From an uncultured archaeon (GTDB lineage: Archaea; Asgardarchaeota; Heimdallarchaeia; Heimdallarchaeales; Heimdallarchaeaceae), in the NCBI GenBank assembly GCA_964534625.1, contig CAZHRF010000007.1, forward strand, positions 32,120 to 96,119: a stretch of DNA of 64,000 nucleotides, written 5' to 3'. Position numbers and translations under genes: made by a program. This document shows, one piece after another, positions 9,398 to 20,100 of this stretch (position 1 is its first letter; each line of letters opens with the position of its first letter). Under the pieces are notes generated by a model. The model had not been told where the DNA came from, did not search any database, and was given only the letters and a program-made list of their open reading frames with translations.

Positions 9398-10771
9398 TTA
9401 ATTTTTATCTAAAATTAGTGTTTTTTCTAAATAATCTTTTATAATTATCAACGCTTTGCAATCGTCTGAATTGTATGAAATGGCTCTTTCCAGCGATTTC
9501 TTGTCTTTGTTATAGAACCATTTTTCAAATAGAAGAATGCTTGACGCTCCATCCATTAGCGATTCATCCCATTCAAATCCTAAATGATTGGCAACATTTT
9601 TCAAGGTATACGATGCTACTGGTAGTATAATATGACTTTTAAAGAGCTTAAATAAATCAACTGAGTTATCCAATATTTTTTGTATCTTCTCTTTAGGTAT
9701 GTTATACTTTTGTGCCATTTTTTTCAAAAAATGCCTTTCTACTGGAGACCAGTGGTAAAGCACAAAATTATTGCCATTTTTGAATAAATGTTTGATAAAC
9801 TTGTGATACATACTTTTTTCATCAGAGAGTTTATTGGCAATAAATGGGTGATAAACTGTTTTTTGTTGATCTCTTGAAAAACAGCCTATTAACCACGTGA
9901 ATTCATGGTTGGGTGATAATTCCATATCTACAAAATGTTCTTGTTGGACTCGTGGGAACTTAAATGGTTTTTGTATAATCGTTTTATTATCTTCTAAGGA
10001 CTGGGCTTGCAAAATAAAGTATTTTATGTCCTTTTTTGATACATAGTTAGATGTCAAAACTTGTTCATTCATTTGACTCAAGTCACGGGTGTTTTTAATC
10101 CCTTTCTCAAAAAATTCTTTTTTTACTCTTTTTCCTATTCCTGAAATAGTTGTTAAATCATCAATTTCAAAAGCTAGTTTTTTACAATATTTTTTCCACT
10201 CACAAATTTTGCAGTCTCGTGTATAAATAGGACTAGGACTTTTTTTTCCTGTTTTAATAGCAATAATTTGTTGTAAATCTTCCTTAAGTTGGTTAATTGT
10301 ATCTTCCACAAGTATTTCTTTCTCTTGATCTTTGGCTGAAATAACGAAAAAATCTATTTTTTGATCTAAAACTAAACAAGTTATATATACATTAAATGTG
10401 CCTTCCATTATCATATTTCTACTCATTTTAATTTTATTTCTCTGGAAATAGGGGATGTATGTATAATTCCCATATTTGCATTTTCCCTCTTTTTTTACAA
10501 GCTTATTGATTTTTGTTATAAACTGCTTATACATAAGAATAGCTTGATAAATTTCTTGTTTCCCTTGTTTAACCTGAGAGAGAACATACTTGAAATTCTG
10601 ATGATATTGAGACATTTTCTTGTCTTGGAATTTTCTTACTCTTCTTGATTTGCTTTTTCTAATAATAGGATGTACACGAATTTCTTCAAATGGACCATGA
10701 TATGTAAGATAAAGCAATAAAGGGCAATCATAATAAAGACGTACATCGTGGTGCGAGACCAATTCTAACAT
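9398..10771 (-). CDS. TM0106-like protein: Cas4/RecB-type Fe-S cysteines + HhH + DnaQ-like (RNase_H_2) exonuclease domain
   Basis: N-terminal CP plus CKICEWKKYC; ISGIG HhH; FVDME, YHWS, YTLKNVA and YNSDDC motifs. Confidence 0.8.
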   Translation of the reverse strand: MLELVSHHDVRLYYDCPLLLYLTYHGPFEEIRVHPIIRKSKSRRVRKFQDKKMSQYHQNFKYVLSQVKQGKQEIYQAILMYKQFITKINKLVKKEGKCKYGNYTYIPYFQRNKIKMSRNMIMEGTFNVYITCLVLDQKIDFFVISAKDQEKEILVEDTINQLKEDLQQIIAIKTGKKSPSPIYTRDCKICEWKKYCKKLAFEIDDLTTISGIGKRVKKEFFEKGIKNTRDLSQMNEQVLTSNYVSKKDIKYFILQAQSLEDNKTIIQKPFKFPRVQQEHFVDMELSPNHEFTWLIGCFSRDQQKTVYHPFIANKLSDEKSMYHKFIKHLFKNGNNFVLYHWSPVERHFLKKMAQKYNIPKEKIQKILDNSVDLFKLFKSHIILPVASYTLKNVANHLGFEWDESLMDGASSILLFEKWFYNKDKKSLERAISYNSDDCKALIIIKDYLEKTLILDKN

Positions 10772-10988: not shown

Positions 10989-11216
10989 ATGACGTACACA
11001 GCATATGATGGATTGATAACCAGTAGTGGATGGTTAACTTTTTGGCTTGTTTTGTTTTCTATATTAACTATAGCTGCATTAACCTGGTTCTTTCTTTACG
11101 TTGAGCAGTCTCAAAATAAAAGCAAAAAAACTACGACCTTAATTATAGTAATTAATGCCTTAATAATAGCATTCGAATTACAACTCATCTTCCTACGTAT
11201 TAATGTAATTTATTAG
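10989..11216 (+). CDS. Small 2-TM protein resembling oligosaccharyltransferase subunit OST5/TMEM258
   Basis: 75 aa, two TM helices with a basic loop; WFFLY and the C-terminal aliphatic/aromatic end match the TMEM258 pattern as recalled. Confidence 0.65.
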   Translation: MTYTAYDGLITSSGWLTFWLVLFSILTIAALTWFFLYVEQSQNKSKKTTTLIIVINALIIAFELQLIFLRINVIY

Positions 11217-11391: not shown

Positions 11392-12249
11392 ATGGACATC
11401 TCTCAATACCTTCAATATTTAACCGTTGATGATATCCTTTCTTATTTTCCTCGTGCTTATGATACAGAGGCTATTGGGTCGGAGATTTCAGCTGAAGCTC
11501 TTGTCAAATTGAATGAACTTGCAAAAGACGATAATTTTTCTTCCACAAAGCTAAGGCGTATCTGGGTACATGCCATTCGAGAGATGTTTTTTCAAGAGTT
11601 TCAGAAAATATTCATATTCAAACCCACTAAAAAATTTGAAAGTACAAATGGTATAAAATCCGCAATCACTTCAAGTTTGAATGAATTGAAAACAGAAATC
11701 ATAACCATGGCGCCTAAAATATATGTTTCAAAAATTGAGGATAAACCATTACGTTTTACAGCTGCTATATGTCTGGAAGAAGTAAAAGATTTTGATGAAT
11801 TCTTAACAGTTGATATAAAAGACTTACTTATTTTAACTATTTTCCCTAAGATAGGTGTCTCTACATTACTTTCATCATGTACAAAACTTGAGCAAAAAGT
11901 GGTTTTGAAATTATTAATGCTGATCTTCAAAGACGTAAAAGAATTAAGACTCAATTCTTTGTTGCTGAGAAAATATTCTGTTTCTGAACCTATCCAAAAA
12001 TTAACTATATCTACTCCTCCTGATATTGCTGGATTTAAAGGCATAAATATGATGCAATTCATGGGGGAAAATGTAATGGAAGGATTAACAGGTTTAAAAC
12101 GCAGGCATGATGCAGATGTTGAGAAGATAACGCGAGTTGGCCCATATACAGAAATTATTTCCAACAACCTTCATTTACTAATAGGTACTGGAATTAAAAT
12201 TCTCAAGTATGATGGCATTGATCCTTTATTGCAAATATCTAAAAAATAA
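11392..12249 (+). CDS. Hypothetical protein, putative CENP-N/Chl4-like
   Basis: 285-aa ORF with TATA-like upstream sequence; by-eye similarity to CENP-N (see findings). Confidence 0.55.
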   Translation: MDISQYLQYLTVDDILSYFPRAYDTEAIGSEISAEALVKLNELAKDDNFSSTKLRRIWVHAIREMFFQEFQKIFIFKPTKKFESTNGIKSAITSSLNELKTEIITMAPKIYVSKIEDKPLRFTAAICLEEVKDFDEFLTVDIKDLLILTIFPKIGVSTLLSSCTKLEQKVVLKLLMLIFKDVKELRLNSLLLRKYSVSEPIQKLTISTPPDIAGFKGINMMQFMGENVMEGLTGLKRRHDADVEKITRVGPYTEIISNNLHLLIGTGIKILKYDGIDPLLQISKK

Positions 12250-12462: not shown

Positions 12463-13020
12463 TTGATAGAATTATTGCAAATTAGTCGAGGCGGAACGGG
12501 AGGTGTCACAGGAGCTAAAATTCTTGCAGAAGCTGCTTTATATGAAGGCATGGATAGTCAAGCTATTCCAAAATATGGTGCAGAAAGAAGAGGAGCTGCT
12601 GTTGAAGCCTACGTAAGGTTTGATGATAAACCTATCCGCATACACAGTCCGGTATACATCGCTGATCATGCTATGATTTTAGAAAAATCATTAATTGATA
12701 AACTTGATTTAGATAAAGTAAAAGATGACGGTATTATAATAGTTAATACGAAGGAATTACCCGAGAAATTGAAGAACTGTGGCAAAAAAATTGCTTACGT
12801 CAATGCCACTAAAATCGCTCAAGACTTTGGTCTTGTTGCGGGTGGTATGACTCTAGTAAGTGGAACAATTTTAGGAGCATATGCAAAAGCCACAGGGCTC
12901 GTTTCTCTTGAGAACGTTGAAAAAGCTATTATTAATTTCTTAGGCGAACGTCGCGGTAGAAAAAATGTTGAAGCTGCCAAAAAAGCATATGAAGAAACGG
13001 AGGTAATTGAAGTTGAATAA
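12463..13020 (+). CDS. porC: 2-oxoacid:ferredoxin oxidoreductase gamma subunit
   Basis: RGGxG, YGAERRGA and NATKIA motifs; AGGTGG RBS; first gene of operon. Confidence 0.9.
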   Translation: MIELLQISRGGTGGVTGAKILAEAALYEGMDSQAIPKYGAERRGAAVEAYVRFDDKPIRIHSPVYIADHAMILEKSLIDKLDLDKVKDDGIIIVNTKELPEKLKNCGKKIAYVNATKIAQDFGLVAGGMTLVSGTILGAYAKATGLVSLENVEKAIINFLGERRGRKNVEAAKKAYEETEVIEVE

Positions 13021-13300
13021 AAGTTTACAATGTCCAGAGGATAGCCCAAGTATGCCTATCCTTAAACCAATTAAAGGTACAGCTGGAAGAACTGGTGACT
13101 GGCGAACTCATCGTCCCGTTCTTGATCCAGATAAATGTATTAAGTGTAATATCTGTTGGATGTATTGCCCTGATTTAACAATAAATCCTGCAGACAAAGA
13201 TAAAGATCAAGTAATAAGTTTTGATTATGAATATTGTAAAGGATGTGGCATCTGTGCTAATGAGTGTCCTAAAGATGCCATTACAATGGTGGAGGAATAG
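13007..13300 (+). CDS. porD: 2-oxoacid:ferredoxin oxidoreductase delta subunit
   Basis: TGDWRTHRP, CIKCNICWMYCP and YCKGCGICANECP. Confidence 0.93.
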   Translation: MKLNKSLQCPEDSPSMPILKPIKGTAGRTGDWRTHRPVLDPDKCIKCNICWMYCPDLTINPADKDKDQVISFDYEYCKGCGICANECPKDAITMVEE

Positions 13301-13306
13301 ATTGCA

Positions 13307-14437
13307 ATGACAAGTACAACAAAAATGTTAACTGGAAATTTTGCTGCAGCTCAAGCTGCTGCTGACGCAAAACCCCAAGTCATAGCTGCCTACCCTATAA
13401 CCCCTCAAACCGAGCAAATTGAATATATTAGCAAATTAGTTGATGGAGGACAATTGAATTCCAAATTTATGAGGGTAGAATCTGAACATTCAGCTTTAGC
13501 AGCTGTTGCTGGTGCTGCTTGGGCTGGAGCAAGAGTGTTTACTGCAACATCAAGTCAAGGATTGTTATATATGGGCGAATGGGTTTATTGGACTGGTTAT
13601 GGTCGATTACCCGTTGTTATGCCCGTTGTGAATCGATGTTTAGCACCTGGTTGGTCAATTTGGGTGGACTTGCAAGATAGTATGGGTTTTAGAGACGCAG
13701 GATGGCTACAATATTATACAAAGAACAACCAAGAGGTATATGATACAACTCTTCAATCGTTCAAGATCTCAGAAGATAAATGTATTGCTCTGCCAAGTAT
13801 GCCCTGTTTAGATGGTTTTGTATTAAGTCATACTGCAGCTAAGGTAGAATTACCTGATCCAGAAGAAGCCTATGCTTTTGTTGGTGATTATTCTGAACCA
13901 GTTATAGAAGTTGATCCAGAGAACCCTTGGACATTCGGTTCAATTGTTATGCCCGATAAATTCAACAAAGATAGAAGGGATTTAATGGAGGCTATGGAAC
14001 GCGCTAAAACCAAAATTAAAGAAGTAAATAGAGAATTCGAGGAAACTTTTGGTAGATCTTATGGAAATGGTTTAGTTGAAAAGTATGGTGCAGAAGAAGC
14101 TGATTTAACTATTGTTGCCCTTGGTACAATGGCAGATGAAGCCCAAGAATCTATTGACAAATTAGAAGAAGAAGGAAAAAGTGTAAATTTAGTTAGAATT
14201 AGAACTTTCAGACCATTCCCAACAGAAGATATTGTAGAAATAGCTAAAAATAACCATAAATTATTGGTGTTCGATAGATCCTTATCATTTGGGCATGAGG
14301 GACATGCAAGAATCGAAATTGAATCTACATTGAAAAGAAATAATGTTGATACACCAGTCTTAGGAAAAATTTTGGGGCTTGGTGGAGAAGACGTTCCTTA
14401 TACACGAATTATGAAAATAGCGAAGGAGCACCTCTAA
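13307..14437 (+). CDS. porA: 2-oxoacid:ferredoxin oxidoreductase alpha subunit
   Basis: AYPITPQT, ESEHSA, TATSSQGL, DGFVLSH and FRPFP motifs. Confidence 0.95.
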   Translation: MTSTTKMLTGNFAAAQAAADAKPQVIAAYPITPQTEQIEYISKLVDGGQLNSKFMRVESEHSALAAVAGAAWAGARVFTATSSQGLLYMGEWVYWTGYGRLPVVMPVVNRCLAPGWSIWVDLQDSMGFRDAGWLQYYTKNNQEVYDTTLQSFKISEDKCIALPSMPCLDGFVLSHTAAKVELPDPEEAYAFVGDYSEPVIEVDPENPWTFGSIVMPDKFNKDRRDLMEAMERAKTKIKEVNREFEETFGRSYGNGLVEKYGAEEADLTIVALGTMADEAQESIDKLEEEGKSVNLVRIRTFRPFPTEDIVEIAKNNHKLLVFDRSLSFGHEGHARIEIESTLKRNNVDTPVLGKILGLGGEDVPYTRIMKIAKEHL

Positions 14438-14449
14438 GGAGTGATAAAG

Positions 14450-15346
14450 ATGACAACAAGAAATGATTTAATGAAAAACCCAAAAGAAGCTCTATTAAAA
14501 GGACATTTTGCTTGTGCCGGATGTGGAAGTGCTTTGGCGTTTAGACATGCCATGGGCGCGATAGCCGATAAGGCAGTTGTAGTTATACCTGCCTGTTGTA
14601 CATCTGTATATCAAGGATTCGGAAAAGGTGTTGCTTTTGATGTTCCAACAATTAATGTGGCATTTGCTTCATCTGACGCTGTTGCAGCAGGGATAAAGAA
14701 TGCTATGGATATGAAAGGTAAAGAAGCTCATGTAGTTGCTTGGGCAGGAGATGGTGGAACAGCAGACATTGGTATAGCCACACTTATAGGAGCTTGTGAT
14801 AGACAAGAAGATATATTGCACGTTATGTATTCTAATAATGTTTATAGTAATACAGGTGGACAACGATCCGGTGACACCCCTATTGGGGCAAAGACAACGA
14901 CTACTCCTTTTGGAAATACAACGCCTAGAAAGATGGTTCCATATATTATGATGGCCAATAACGCTAGATATGTTGCAACAGCAAGTTCTGCCTATCCTAC
15001 TGATTTAGTCGAGAAGATAAAGAAGGCTGTCTCACTAAAAGGTTTCAAATTTATACAGATAGATGCTCCATGTCCTCCTGCTTGGAAAATTGATTCCAGC
15101 AAGTCAATCACTGTTTCTAAATTAGCTATAGAAACTGGTATTTGGCCAATGTTTGAATGGGATAGTGCAACAAGTAAAGCTGTATTATCTCCAAGAGGTA
15201 AAAAATATTCAGACAAAGAGAACAGAAAACCTGTTGAGGAATGGCTCAATTTACAAGGACGTTTTAAAGGTATAACTGAAGAAAAATTAAAAGCCCTTAA
15301 AGCTGACATGGATAGACAATGGGACTTCCTTAAAAAATTCCTTTAA
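14450..15346 (+). CDS. porB: 2-oxoacid:ferredoxin oxidoreductase beta subunit (TPP-binding)
   Basis: ACAGCG, GDGGTADIG, NTGGQRS and APCP motifs; GGAGTGA RBS. Confidence 0.95.
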   Translation: MTTRNDLMKNPKEALLKGHFACAGCGSALAFRHAMGAIADKAVVVIPACCTSVYQGFGKGVAFDVPTINVAFASSDAVAAGIKNAMDMKGKEAHVVAWAGDGGTADIGIATLIGACDRQEDILHVMYSNNVYSNTGGQRSGDTPIGAKTTTTPFGNTTPRKMVPYIMMANNARYVATASSAYPTDLVEKIKKAVSLKGFKFIQIDAPCPPAWKIDSSKSITVSKLAIETGIWPMFEWDSATSKAVLSPRGKKYSDKENRKPVEEWLNLQGRFKGITEEKLKALKADMDRQWDFLKKFL

Positions 15347-16226: not shown

Positions 16227-17405
16227 ATGAACCAAGAAAAATATCATGAGTTGAATATTTCCCCCTTTTATATACCCTTTTTAAGAGATTTGGGTATAAA
16301 AGTTGTGGCTATCATAATATTTGATCTTATGTATGGACCGATATGTTATATTAAATCATTAGCACGTTCAAATTATGGTTCTAAATTACAAGAAATTGAT
16401 TCCTTAGCTGAAATTTATGCGGGGTTTGCACGAACTTCAGTCGATGTGGTCACAGGGATGGATGAAAAAATTATCCTTGGGAGATATGTTCAGATGGATA
16501 AGGAATCAGAAAATACATCAATCCTGTTGTTTGTGACATTAGAAGATGTTGATACACAAAAATTATCCAATTATGCCCGTTCTCTGGTTGAAAGATCACG
16601 AGGGCAACCTAGTTTGTTTAATCAATCTTTAGGTTCATTGATAGAAGCGGAAAAGAAATCAGCACAAAAACTCATAATATCTAGTTCTGATAACTTTCTA
16701 AAAGGTTTAGAATTAGATGATAAATCAGTAGTGAGTGGAACGGAATTTAATAATGTTTATGGATTCTTGTTTTTAATGTACAGTAGATCAGCGATAGACG
16801 GGCGATTTTTACCTAAAATGATTTCAGGAAAAAAAGTGGACTTGGTACAACTCTCTAAATTCATTGATACACAGAAAAATGAAGTAGATTTTACCGATTC
16901 AGATCTAATAAGTTTATACTACAAGGGTTCTGAGTTATTAATTTTTCAACAAAAAATAGGCGATTTGATGATTGGTTTGAAGAAACCAAAAAGCAGAATA
17001 AATTATAATTACTTGATAGATTGGTTTCAAGCCTTTTACACCAGTTTTTTAGCCATAAAGAGTGAAACAAATCCAGAATCTGTTGTGAAAACCTTACAAT
17101 ATATGGATGAAATGTTTTCTAGTAAATCACCCAAATATATAGCAGCCGAATTTTTTGATTTGATGCTAAATAGTAAAATAGATCATCCGGAATTGCAGGT
17201 ACAAGCAATCACTCTCCAAAAGAAAGGCTGGATAACATTGAGAAATGAATTTAAGCTATTTTATACAAACTTGAAATACTTTAAAGGTGATTTTTCAATA
17301 GATCAAATTAGTCAACATCTCTCAGTACCGATTGCTGACGTAGCTAAATTTATAATCTTTTTGAAATCCCGTGATTTTATTTCCGTTTATAGAAAAAAGA
17401 GATGA
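16227..17405 (+). CDS. Longin/uDENN-domain protein with C-terminal winged helix (NPRL2/NPRL3-like)
   Basis: N-terminal IIIFDLMYGP longin signature; C-terminal YFKGDFSIDQISQHLSV...FLKSRDFI wHTH. Confidence 0.6.
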   Translation: MNQEKYHELNISPFYIPFLRDLGIKVVAIIIFDLMYGPICYIKSLARSNYGSKLQEIDSLAEIYAGFARTSVDVVTGMDEKIILGRYVQMDKESENTSILLFVTLEDVDTQKLSNYARSLVERSRGQPSLFNQSLGSLIEAEKKSAQKLIISSSDNFLKGLELDDKSVVSGTEFNNVYGFLFLMYSRSAIDGRFLPKMISGKKVDLVQLSKFIDTQKNEVDFTDSDLISLYYKGSELLIFQQKIGDLMIGLKKPKSRINYNYLIDWFQAFYTSFLAIKSETNPESVVKTLQYMDEMFSSKSPKYIAAEFFDLMLNSKIDHPELQVQAITLQKKGWITLRNEFKLFYTNLKYFKGDFSIDQISQHLSVPIADVAKFIIFLKSRDFISVYRKKR

Positions 17406-17479: not shown

Positions 17480-18496
17480 ATGGAGTCTATATGTATGGTG
17501 AAGTTTGAAATAACAAAGCTCGACATTGAATACAATTATCTAAATAAATTATTGACAGATATGAGAAAACTTGCATCCTTACATATAGATGTCTTTTTTG
17601 AAGAAATGGGGATATACGAGATATTAACCCGTCCTAGGATGCCAGAAGAAATATTTCATTTGCTGAATTTTTCTACCTTAAATCAAGAATTTAATGTAAT
17701 GTTTGAGTTGCTTGCAAAAGATCATTTTATTCGTAAACAAGGAGAGTTTTACGTAGAAAATAAAATGATTAATCAGTTCCGCGAACGCACAAAACGTGAA
17801 CTAGAAAGAGAAGACGATATATTAGAACCGCTGGATCATTTTTTCGAATATTCGTTAAGATCATTTAAAGCCATATTAAATGGAGACCAAGGAAAATTAA
17901 ACGATAAAAAACTCAGATTAACTCTTGATTCACTATATGGAACAAAACTCTTTTTTCTTATTAGGCAATATCTATTCAAACAAATGAAATCACAACTCTC
18001 CGTTTTTAAAACAAAATCCAATTTGAATTTGTTGAATTGGGGTATAGGTTCGGGATATGAAGCACTACATATGGCTGATTACTATGGAGACAAAGTGTCT
18101 ATTATTAGTGTAGAACCAAATGAGGGTTTAAGACCATGTAGAGTGTTACAAGACATTTATGGAATATATAATGTGCATTTCGAAGAAAGTAAAGACCTTA
18201 CAAAAACTTTATTGAAAGACAGTGTAGACTTTTTTATTGGCAATGCAATCTTGAATATTGGAACCTTAAAAGACAATATAAAAAAGATAAAAGACATGCT
18301 AGTAGAAACAGGCTCTCTAGTAATAATAATGGACGAAAATTACACTAAATCCATAGACTGGGCACTCAGTATCCATAAAGATTACGTCATGTATCAAAGT
18401 AAAGAGGAAACCATACAAAAACTAAAACACTATGGTTTTTCAAAAGTAACTTACTTGGATTCAAATAAAGGGTTTATAGTTATAACAAAGAGTTAG
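17480..18496 (+). CDS. wHTH + class I SAM-dependent methyltransferase-like protein
   Basis: LLNWGIGSG motif I, ISVEPN, DSVDFFI and MLVETGSLVI; N-terminal wHTH-like helices. Confidence 0.6.
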   Translation: MESICMVKFEITKLDIEYNYLNKLLTDMRKLASLHIDVFFEEMGIYEILTRPRMPEEIFHLLNFSTLNQEFNVMFELLAKDHFIRKQGEFYVENKMINQFRERTKRELEREDDILEPLDHFFEYSLRSFKAILNGDQGKLNDKKLRLTLDSLYGTKLFFLIRQYLFKQMKSQLSVFKTKSNLNLLNWGIGSGYEALHMADYYGDKVSIISVEPNEGLRPCRVLQDIYGIYNVHFEESKDLTKTLLKDSVDFFIGNAILNIGTLKDNIKKIKDMLVETGSLVIIMDENYTKSIDWALSIHKDYVMYQSKEETIQKLKHYGFSKVTYLDSNKGFIVITKS

Positions 18497-18651: not shown

Positions 18652-20100
18652 ATGTATTCTCATTACCAAAACGCGTTTGAATATTGCGTGAAAGAGTTAA
18701 AGAAACATGATATATCCTATGTGATATATGAAATTAACAGTGAATTACTTGAAAAAGTGAACTTTTTTATATGGAAAAAAATGGATTTCATTTATAAATT
18801 TGCAGAAAAAACGAACTGTCATTTAGCTATTGTAGGTGGTTTTGTTCGTGATATACTTATGGAGAATCCTTCAAATGATGTGGATATTGTTCTTTTTAGT
18901 GGAAATATAGATGAATTTACATCCGATATAGCAAAAAGAATGGATGCAAAAATAGGAAAAATGAACAATAAAACTTTAACTACCCAAATTAGATTTAAGG
19001 ATGGACTAGTATTTGAATTTAACCAAATTAGAAAAGAGAAATATGACGAATTTCCATCAAGACAACCTAAAGTTGAAGAAGGCACTATTGTTGAAGATTT
19101 GAAAAGAAGAGATTTTACAATAAATACTTTTCTTATGTTTGGTACTCAATACATTGACATTTTTGGAGGAAAGGAAGATCTAGAAAAAAAAATAATAGAC
19201 ACGACACGTACGCCAGTTATTGTGTTTAAAGAAGACTACCTAAGAATGTTTAGAGCAGTAAGATTCGCTTGTAAACTGGATTTTATGATAGCAAAGAGAG
19301 TTAAAGACGGAATAAAAAAGAATGCGAAGAATCTCAAAAAGGTTCCTCATGAAAGAATAGTGGAAGAACTTAAAGAATCAGTTAGATTTAACTCAAAAAA
19401 AATGTTTAATCTACTAGTACAATTGGAGATAGTAAAAGTTCTGATCCCTGAGCTGAAAAATAAGCAATTAAATCCAAATTTGTACGTTACTAGAAAATTA
19501 TATGATAAGATAGAAAAAAAATTGCACTATATTGATAAAAGAAGCAAAAAAATAGAAGATATAATATTGATGAAGTTAACCCCTATTTTCATGGAAATAG
19601 GGCGAAAGGCAATTAATATAAAAAATGATTTGTGTCAACCCCCCAATTTAGATGCAGTTTCAAAAGTATTAAGGCGGTTTAAGTTTTCCAATGAAGAGAT
19701 TTATCAAATTTCATTACTGTCAAGAAATACATCGAGCTTCTTCTATTTTGTTACTCATGACTGCTCTTTGCTAGAAAAAAGAAAGTTTTTACTGAAAGTT
19801 GGGATCCATTTAGAAGCAATTATTACGCTTGCCAAATCAGAGAATAGATTGTTATGTGACCCCTTAGAATTAAGCCCATTAATTTCAGAGTTAAAAGATT
19901 TGAACAAAGATAGATCATTAATTGATGTAGAACCAGCATTAGACGGATTCCAAATACAAGAAATATTTAATTTCGAAGGAAAAGAAATAGGACAAGCAAA
20001 AGAATTGTTGGTTGATGCTATAATGGCAGAAAAAATTGTTAATAATGAAAAAGAGTGTATTGATTATATAAAGAAAAATGAAAAAGAGATTAAAAATTAA
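18652..20100 (+). CDS. cca: Class II tRNA nucleotidyltransferase (CCA-adding enzyme)/poly(A) polymerase family
   Basis: GGFVRD...DVD (motif A), RRDFTIN (B), EDYLRMFRAVRF (D) and ERIVEEL (E). Confidence 0.88.
   Translation: MYSHYQNAFEYCVKELKKHDISYVIYEINSELLEKVNFFIWKKMDFIYKFAEKTNCHLAIVGGFVRDILMENPSNDVDIVLFSGNIDEFTSDIAKRMDAKIGKMNNKTLTTQIRFKDGLVFEFNQIRKEKYDEFPSRQPKVEEGTIVEDLKRRDFTINTFLMFGTQYIDIFGGKEDLEKKIIDTTRTPVIVFKEDYLRMFRAVRFACKLDFMIAKRVKDGIKKNAKNLKKVPHERIVEELKESVRFNSKKMFNLLVQLEIVKVLIPELKNKQLNPNLYVTRKLYDKIEKKLHYIDKRSKKIEDIILMKLTPIFMEIGRKAINIKNDLCQPPNLDAVSKVLRRFKFSNEEIYQISLLSRNTSSFFYFVTHDCSLLEKRKFLLKVGIHLEAIITLAKSENRLLCDPLELSPLISELKDLNKDRSLIDVEPALDGFQIQEIFNFEGKEIGQAKELLVDAIMAEKIVNNEKECIDYIKKNEKEIKN

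Follow-up and report, generated by a model that had tools for sequence, protein, structure and literature searches.

Computational analysis of the window, a stretch of 64,000 nucleotides of archaeal DNA, established the gene, family, single-copy state, fold, domain order and predicted self-pairing of an Asgard protein that, judged by its fold, very probably belongs to the RdgC / CENP-LN superfamily. The model reads as a mosaic, with the head of CENP-N and the domain order of CENP-L, and by the defining tests of those two families the protein is outside both CENP-N and CENP-L proper. We consider it rather probable that the protein acts as a self-pairing clamp on bare double-stranded DNA (dsDNA), a two-fold arch around one duplex like the CENP-LN vault and RdgC, and the gene is called the clamp gene below.

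The gene begins with ATG and encodes a 285-residue product (Table 1), the translation of which contains the segments cited in the original prediction. That prediction had described an orphan protein with no recognisable prokaryotic motif. Searches of Pfam, PHROG, NCBIfam and PADLOC gave no match; a sequence search of PDB was also empty. The protein is not an orphan: 46 and then 73 close relatives were found, and a profile run exhaustively against 1.84 billion representatives returned 79 matching clusters, in which the full-length proteins have about 250–380 residues. The protein itself is weakly basic (net charge +2, pI 8.3), and the family is basic overall (median pI 9.3; 80% of members above 8.5), with few well-conserved basic positions besides R238 in the family alignment.

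Table 1. Features of the clamp gene, its predicted domains and its surroundings in the window.
Feature	Position	Strand	Basis or remark
CENP-L/N- and RdgC-like protein (clamp) gene	11392..12249	+	ORF, conserved full-length family, fold model
N-terminal five-helix domain, aa 1-68	11392..11595	+	DSSP, CENP-N superposition
TBP-like curved sheet (CENP-L/N homology domain), aa 69-186	11596..11949	+	structural superpositions
Inserted dimerisation module, aa 189-263	11956..12180	+	conservation, homodimer model
Return strand and helix completing the first domain, aa 265-285	12184..12246	+	aligned ranges
457-aa RNase_H_2 / HhH / Cas4-like nuclease	9398..10771	-	
75-aa two-helix membrane microprotein	10989..11216	+	conserved upstream neighbour in the family; no Pfam match
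Pyruvate/2-oxoacid:ferredoxin oxidoreductase (por) operon	12463..15346	+	Pfam POR, POR_N; downstream of the clamp gene
392-aa protein, possible C-terminal HTH	16227..17405	+	weak NPRL3 match, E 0.058
338-aa protein, weakly methyltransferase-like	17480..18496	+	
Class II (bacterial-type) poly(A) polymerase / CCA-adding nucleotidyltransferase	18652..20100	+	PF01743, PF12627

The fold was modelled with AlphaFold2 (pLDDT 88, pTM 0.85). The curved sheet at aa 69–186 includes two helices in this model, and structure searches found the span to be common to CENP-L/N, RdgC, YejK, TBP and AdoMetDC. When PDB was searched with Foldseek, rows 1 to 23 were exclusively CENP-N, CENP-L, Chl4 and Iml3 (best 7pkn_N, E 1.1e-6, TM 0.50), and RdgC followed at row 24 (E 4e-3). 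A Foldseek-independent structural aligner, run over 48,161 chains, gave Z 11.1 for CENP-N (rmsd 4.2, 187 pairs), 10.4 for CENP-L (rmsd 4.8, 201 pairs), 10.2 for Chl4, 8.5 for Iml3, 7.5 for YejK and 7.2 for RdgC. The two methods support the predicted kinship to CENP-N and to the TBP-like CENP-L/N fold, with superpositions of the CENP-L/N type at rmsd 4–5 Å and about 10% identity. The N-terminal helical domain also proved CENP-N-like, since superposition starts at residue 1 of the model and residue 7 of CENP-N; the same domain is SAP-like as well (PIAS1 SAP, Z 6.6, rmsd 2.5, 61 pairs).

The protein had been said to parallel CENP-N over its whole length, which held for the N-terminal and homology domains but not beyond them. 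CENP-N (6EQT) 7–213 superposes on model residues 1–284 (Z 11.0, rmsd 4.4, 188 pairs), and the sequential superposition stops at CENP-N residue 207–213 even in full-length chains, at about 187 pairs; Foldseek can thread the model along full-length CENP-N, but with rmsd 7–8. A second superposition of CENP-L 57–341 on model residues 56–285 is collinear (Z 11.5, rmsd 5.0, 205 pairs), and Iml3 1–242 also superposes on the model (Z 8.5). Ranges and pair counts suggest that both the Asgard protein and CENP-L carry the dimer module as an insertion, while CENP-N has it at the C-terminal end; the Asgard protein is therefore not collinear with CENP-N throughout. Residues 265–285 appear to match CENP-N about 193–210 and the C-terminus of CENP-L, the residue-level match being taken from range ends. 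A specific assignment to CENP-N was not supported, as CENP-L scores equally well and shares its domain order with the Asgard protein, and there is one gene with a predicted homodimer.

Unnamed phage and bacterial clusters among predicted structures matched the model at TM 0.60 and 0.59, against 0.55 for CENP-L and 0.49 for CENP-N, and another member of the clamp family matched such a cluster at TM 0.75 over 278 of 298 residues. GAPS4b_N is found in 11–21% of the members of some matching clusters. A BFVD search gave one match to an uncharacterised phage protein (E 5.7e-5, TM 0.26), with RdgC rows lower. The helical domain and TBP-like sheet that the original prediction expected are thus present, but its expected structural preference for CENP-N over phage proteins is partly contradicted by these clusters, which among predicted structures outscore both CENP-N and CENP-L. 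Because the full-length architecture also occurs in phage and bacterial clusters, its range is wider than Asgard archaea plus eukaryotes, and the top rank in PDB is no proof of ancestry.

The near-invariant residues of the family (G214, G217, G225, G231, R238 and G250) all lie within aa 189–263, and the first five are kept in more than 90% of 123 members. In the predicted homodimer these five, the most conserved of the family, are located in the self-interface, aa 208–249, where strand 217–225 pairs antiparallel. The prediction scored 0.55, the best of three controls 0.00, and the high value may stem from the predictor's memory of similar solved complexes; in calibration, 20 of 30 solved homodimers attained the homodimer mark, as did 1 of 23 single chains. 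The runs share at least 93% of contacts, with pLDDT of at least 85. Self-pairing is predicted to take place through this conserved module. Segment 208–249 of the homodimer resembles the Iml3-binding part of Chl4. The C-terminal likeness to this piece of Chl4, claimed originally, gains support from the motif likeness to Chl4 403–427 and from the homodimer model.

The eukaryotic sequences on which the original comparison was based proved almost exact: CENP-N 46–86 with one E/D slip, CENP-N 187–198, and Chl4 403–427 with one R/N slip, the latter within the Iml3-binding fragment 4JE3_B. All three blocks had been picked by eye, after the fact, and were compared pairwise with 5000 shuffles. Neither of the CENP-N blocks exceeded chance as a sequence pair (11/41 identical, P = 0.07, and 3/12 identical, P = 0.13, respectively). 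The Chl4 block was the best of 261 windows, with 6/25 identical residues and none of the 5000 shuffles as good; on the family PSSM, the motif had its top score at the expected position, yet with P 0.31. The alignment of the family HMM with human CENP-N 10–125 keeps the register of the structures (9.4 bits; reached by 11 of 5000 shuffles), but with pig CENP-N it had P = 0.05 only, and hhalign gave a non-significant E of 0.11 against a CENP-N profile that is shallow and mammal-only (Neff 1.4). The CENP-N Pfam model (PF05238) produced nine weak matches in 301 genomes, none above the cut-off; one fell on the dimer motif of a clamp orthologue (E 0.055, 13.2 bits with the cut-off at 25, model positions 333–395), and the 285-aa protein itself was not matched. 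One of two weak matches of the RdgC model (PF04381) in 151 genomes was on a clamp orthologue, below the cut-off (E 0.035, 13.9 bits against 25). The CENP-L model (PF13092) gave nothing above its cut-off, and had no match on family members in 301 genomes at E 0.1. At the level of sequence, kinship to CENP-N is weakly suggested, in register, by signals none of which is significant alone.

The close relatives, at 34–46% identity, are named Heimdallarchaeota or Heimdallarchaeaceae; Ca. Heimdallarchaeum aukensis and endolithica, whose genomes are complete, are among them. All named matches of the exhaustive search are Asgard (Hodarchaeales, Njordarchaeia, Odinarchaeia, Promethearchaeota). A wider profile matched 105 of 301 Asgard genomes, of which three weak cases (G014, G099 and G202) were taken as chance, leaving 102 carriers. 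The clamp gene was found in 26 of the 28 other genomes of its own family and in 73/77 other genomes of its class, essentially always once; it is near-universal and single-copy in Heimdallarchaeia, including Hodarchaeales, and is also carried by Njord- and Odin-group members. At the class level its distribution across Asgard genomes is patchy. The two largest families sampled, which going by their size would be the Loki- and Thor-group, were without it by the wider profile (0/76, and 1/68, that one spurious), so there it is either dispensable or too diverged; no diverged copy was found beside the Cren7-like gene described below in lineages lacking a profile match. In a gene tree of 59 sequences, each multi-row family was monophyletic and the 15 changes were the minimum, a family-congruent pattern that fits vertical descent. 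The source genome (89.8% complete) contains no paralogue, the next HMM match having E 0.011, and with the gene single-copy across carriers no CENP-L-type heterodimer partner was found. One genome (G184) has a full copy (C87:267-1115) and a partial one (C37:3-440), both at contig ends, and the second is probably an assembly duplicate. Among the papers found, including the main texts of two Asgard structure surveys, none describes the clamp family, and those main texts do not mention CENP or kinetochore.

Gene neighbourhoods were surveyed by clustering 61 loci; the genomes are related and kin are not independent, so associations between neighbours are leads. Across the order, 36 of 40 genomes have a gene for a Cren7-like/winged-helix protein that is co-oriented with the clamp gene and lies less than 500 bases upstream of it. 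It is just upstream in 24/27 genomes of the family, 12/13 of the rest of the order and 1/36 elsewhere. The 130-aa product (for example that of L081:5545-5937) has a zinc-binding, CxxC-bearing N-terminal half followed by a winged helix and occurs in about 89 of 301 Asgard genomes. The Cren7 Pfam model misses it, and its likeness to Cren7 comes from weak Foldseek rows (3KXT, E 0.096, probability 0.97); we regard it as a candidate chromatin protein. In the source genome and its closest relative this gene has been relocated to another locus (own copy at G000 C33:32360-32758, L146:4361-4759). The position that it has in relatives is occupied here by the 457-aa nuclease of Table 1, which marks a rearrangement in this sub-lineage. 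The 75-aa microprotein is conserved in the order but is not adjacent to the clamp gene in several related families, and no evidence links it functionally to the clamp. The por operon, whose synteny downstream of the clamp gene is confined to the family, is outside the clamp system. After it and an HD hydrolase come two unannotated genes (392 and 338 aa) that are syntenic family-wide; further downstream, a bacterial-type nucleotidyltransferase is encoded in this archaeal genome. The original prediction had also raised a role in a segregation system. The gene is surrounded by no segregation operon, and ParA/ParB, SMC and histone clusters were not found among the annotated conserved neighbours of the 61 loci.

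[quoted passage not shown] The superposition of the two N-terminal domains agrees with this model, and in Bacillus and Halobacteria, histones share operons with RdgC-like proteins that have an additional N-terminal domain (PMC11390915). The histone complement of the carriers points both ways. A nucleosomal histone model matched 22/22 and 12/12 genomes of two other families of the same class, and another family of the class, clamp carriers included, has 2–12 such genes per genome; it matched only 3/28 other genomes of the clamp gene's own family and 2/12 of the next family, and found nothing in this genome or in either complete Ca. Heimdallarchaeum genome. With a custom Asgard histone profile, three histones of 56–59 aa that stop directly past the RxTxxxxD motif were detected in this genome. 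These alpha3-truncated (face-to-face type) histones are encoded outside the window (G000 C5:56743-56913, C45:19913-20092 and C39:16427-16606); the type was described in PMC11390915, and a Kariarchaeaceae genome is reported to have the same histone state (2026 preprint 10.64898/2026.07.02.735847). The CENP-N residues that read the CENP-A L1 loop are E3, E7 and R11 (PMC9235857). The archaeal chain sets in at about CENP-N residue 7 and so lacks an equivalent of E3; in 123 members the equivalents of E7 and R11 are unconserved and columns 1–5 variable. By analogy with the published complex, a closed homodimer would accommodate one DNA duplex but not two gyres (PMC9235857). The clamp gene has been retained in genomes that appear to lack canonical nucleosomes, and its product does not preserve the residues that read CENP-A, which makes such a reader very unlikely.

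In the explanation that we favour, the clamp, the protein would be a vertically inherited, single-copy Asgard member of the RdgC / CENP-L/N superfamily. Two copies would join at the strand around aa 217–225 into one continuous sheet, with helices 228–249 packing on it, and the homodimer would close on bare dsDNA independently of sequence. It would most likely serve to organise chromosomes or to repair DNA, perhaps together with the Cren7-like/winged-helix product of the gene found nearby in the order. DNA binding, arch geometry and cellular role are what we infer for the Asgard protein; known relatives that share the CENP-LN/RdgC fold enclose dsDNA in a dimeric ring or vault (PMC9235857, PMC11229321), and human CENP-LN by itself shows minimal DNA binding (PMC9235857). 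It is unlikely, if still worth weighing, that an RdgC/RexA/GAPS4b-type clamp serving as a mobile-element or defence sensor was acquired early and then domesticated. The protein would then function in DNA-damage sensing or recombination control, and its kinship to CENP-L/N would be at superfamily level only. The closest predicted-structure matches, phage and bacterial clusters of which some carry GAPS4b_N, would be expected from such an origin, as would the patchy class-level distribution, and a DNA ring is also predicted for GAPS4b, part of a defence system triggered by DNA damage (PMC13748975). The gene is nevertheless single-copy, its neighbourhoods are housekeeping with no conserved effector in the 61 loci, its tree is family-congruent, and no sequence relatives were found in viral contigs, phage or plasmid records, PHROGs or PADLOC.

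The arch may instead be a scaffold that binds a protein partner and not DNA, for example an adjacent Rab-like GTPase, although this seems quite unlikely to us. About 16 of the 61 loci, spread over six families and all in other lineages, have a Ras/Rab-family gene as the direct neighbour of the clamp gene; its orientation varies (co-oriented or divergent), there is no such neighbour in the clamp gene's own order, and Rab-like genes are numerous in Asgard genomes. The pseudo-GTPase CENP-M binds CENP-LN at the apex of the dimer (PMC9235857). In Odin-like genomes, an E2F/DP-family winged-helix gene (PF02319, E 4.6e-10) stands beside the Rab-like GTPase gene, two genes from the clamp gene (L077:4902-5360, L048:3492-3938 and L079:6841-7284). 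At L049:3934-4472, in a single-contig genome, the Rab-like neighbour is split into frames of 83 and 94 aa, which may reflect a frameshift or a sequencing error.

Kinetochore ancestry is compatible with the clamp explanation. CENP-L and CENP-N were proposed to derive from a duplicated homodimeric DNA-binding singleton, whose named relatives are only bacterial RdgC and TBP-like folds (PMC9235857, PMC6601020); PMC6601020 names no archaeal homologue of it. Heimdallarchaeia is the class closest to eukaryotes, and a near-universal single-copy gene in it would be a concrete candidate for the singleton. Whether the Asgard gene is the pro-orthologue of both proteins, inherited and then duplicated in eukaryotes, with CENP-L keeping the domain order and CENP-N keeping the helical domain while its dimer module shifted to the C-terminus, is a question on which we stand slightly on the doubtful side of even. 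The protein unites the N-terminal domain of CENP-N with the topology of CENP-L, its distribution extends to the Njord- and Odin-group with the sampled families monophyletic, the family HMM is in register with human CENP-N, and a homodimeric ancestor of this kind was predicted in PMC9235857, building on PMC6601020. Other observations count against it: the HMM signal declines with pig CENP-N, the CENP-L Pfam model is silent on the family, and RdgC-like proteins with an extra N-terminal domain exist in Bacillus and Halobacteria (PMC11390915). As the fold has still closer matches among unnamed phage and bacterial proteins, descent of CENP-L/N from this Asgard gene is plausible only. We would give a little less than an even chance to the wider scenario in which an unduplicated Asgard homodimeric dsDNA clamp, organising chromatin with or without nucleosomal histones, later became the core of the inner kinetochore. 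Retention of the gene in a lineage largely without nucleosomal histones suggests that DNA clamping preceded the reading of centromeric nucleosomes. If the protein is merely another RdgC-like branch, it would still be a conserved protein of Asgard chromatin or repair that has so far gone undescribed. The contribution of this locus lies in its histone-poor context, in the link to the Cren7-like gene at the level of the order and in the breakage of that link here. The protein is small and soluble, so the questions of ancestry and clamping are open to bench testing.

Among known systems, CENP-L / Iml3 (PF13092; 7XHN_L, 7R5V_L, 7PKN_L, 4IT3) shares with the Asgard protein an insert-and-return topology that consists of the TBP-like domain, the inserted dimer module and the return strand-helix. 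Unlike CENP-L, the Asgard protein is archaeal, is a predicted homodimer, bears a CENP-N-like helical domain and has no PF13092 match; we know of no CCAN partners in Asgard archaea. CENP-N / Chl4 (PF05238; 6EQT, 7PKN_N, 6QLD_N, 4JE3_B) shares the N-terminal helical and TBP-like domains, and the model has the same succession of a pyrin-like helical domain and an L/N homology domain. The Asgard dimer module is internal, whereas that of CENP-N is at the C-terminus, and the Asgard protein is about 55 aa shorter, is without a CENP-A or CENP-L partner and does not keep E3, E7 or R11. The match to the unnamed phage/bacterial RdgC-like clusters spans the whole chain and takes in the N-terminal domain (TM 0.59–0.75). 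As a rule, these clusters, GAPS4b (PF26110) and the proteins of RdgC-histone operons are mobile and occur together with effectors or histones, unlike the single-copy, vertically inherited Asgard family, with which no sequence similarity was found. RdgC (PF04381; 2OWL, 2OWY; Z 8.2, rmsd 5.8, 185 pairs), a homodimeric DNA ring, and YejK (9BE2; Z 7.5, rmsd 3.4, 128 pairs) are of the same fold family; both are bacterial and score below CENP-L/N, and RdgC is without the N-terminal helical domain. The TBP-like curved sheet and strand-pairing dimer module of the RdgC / CENP-LN clamp superfamily are both present in the Asgard model.
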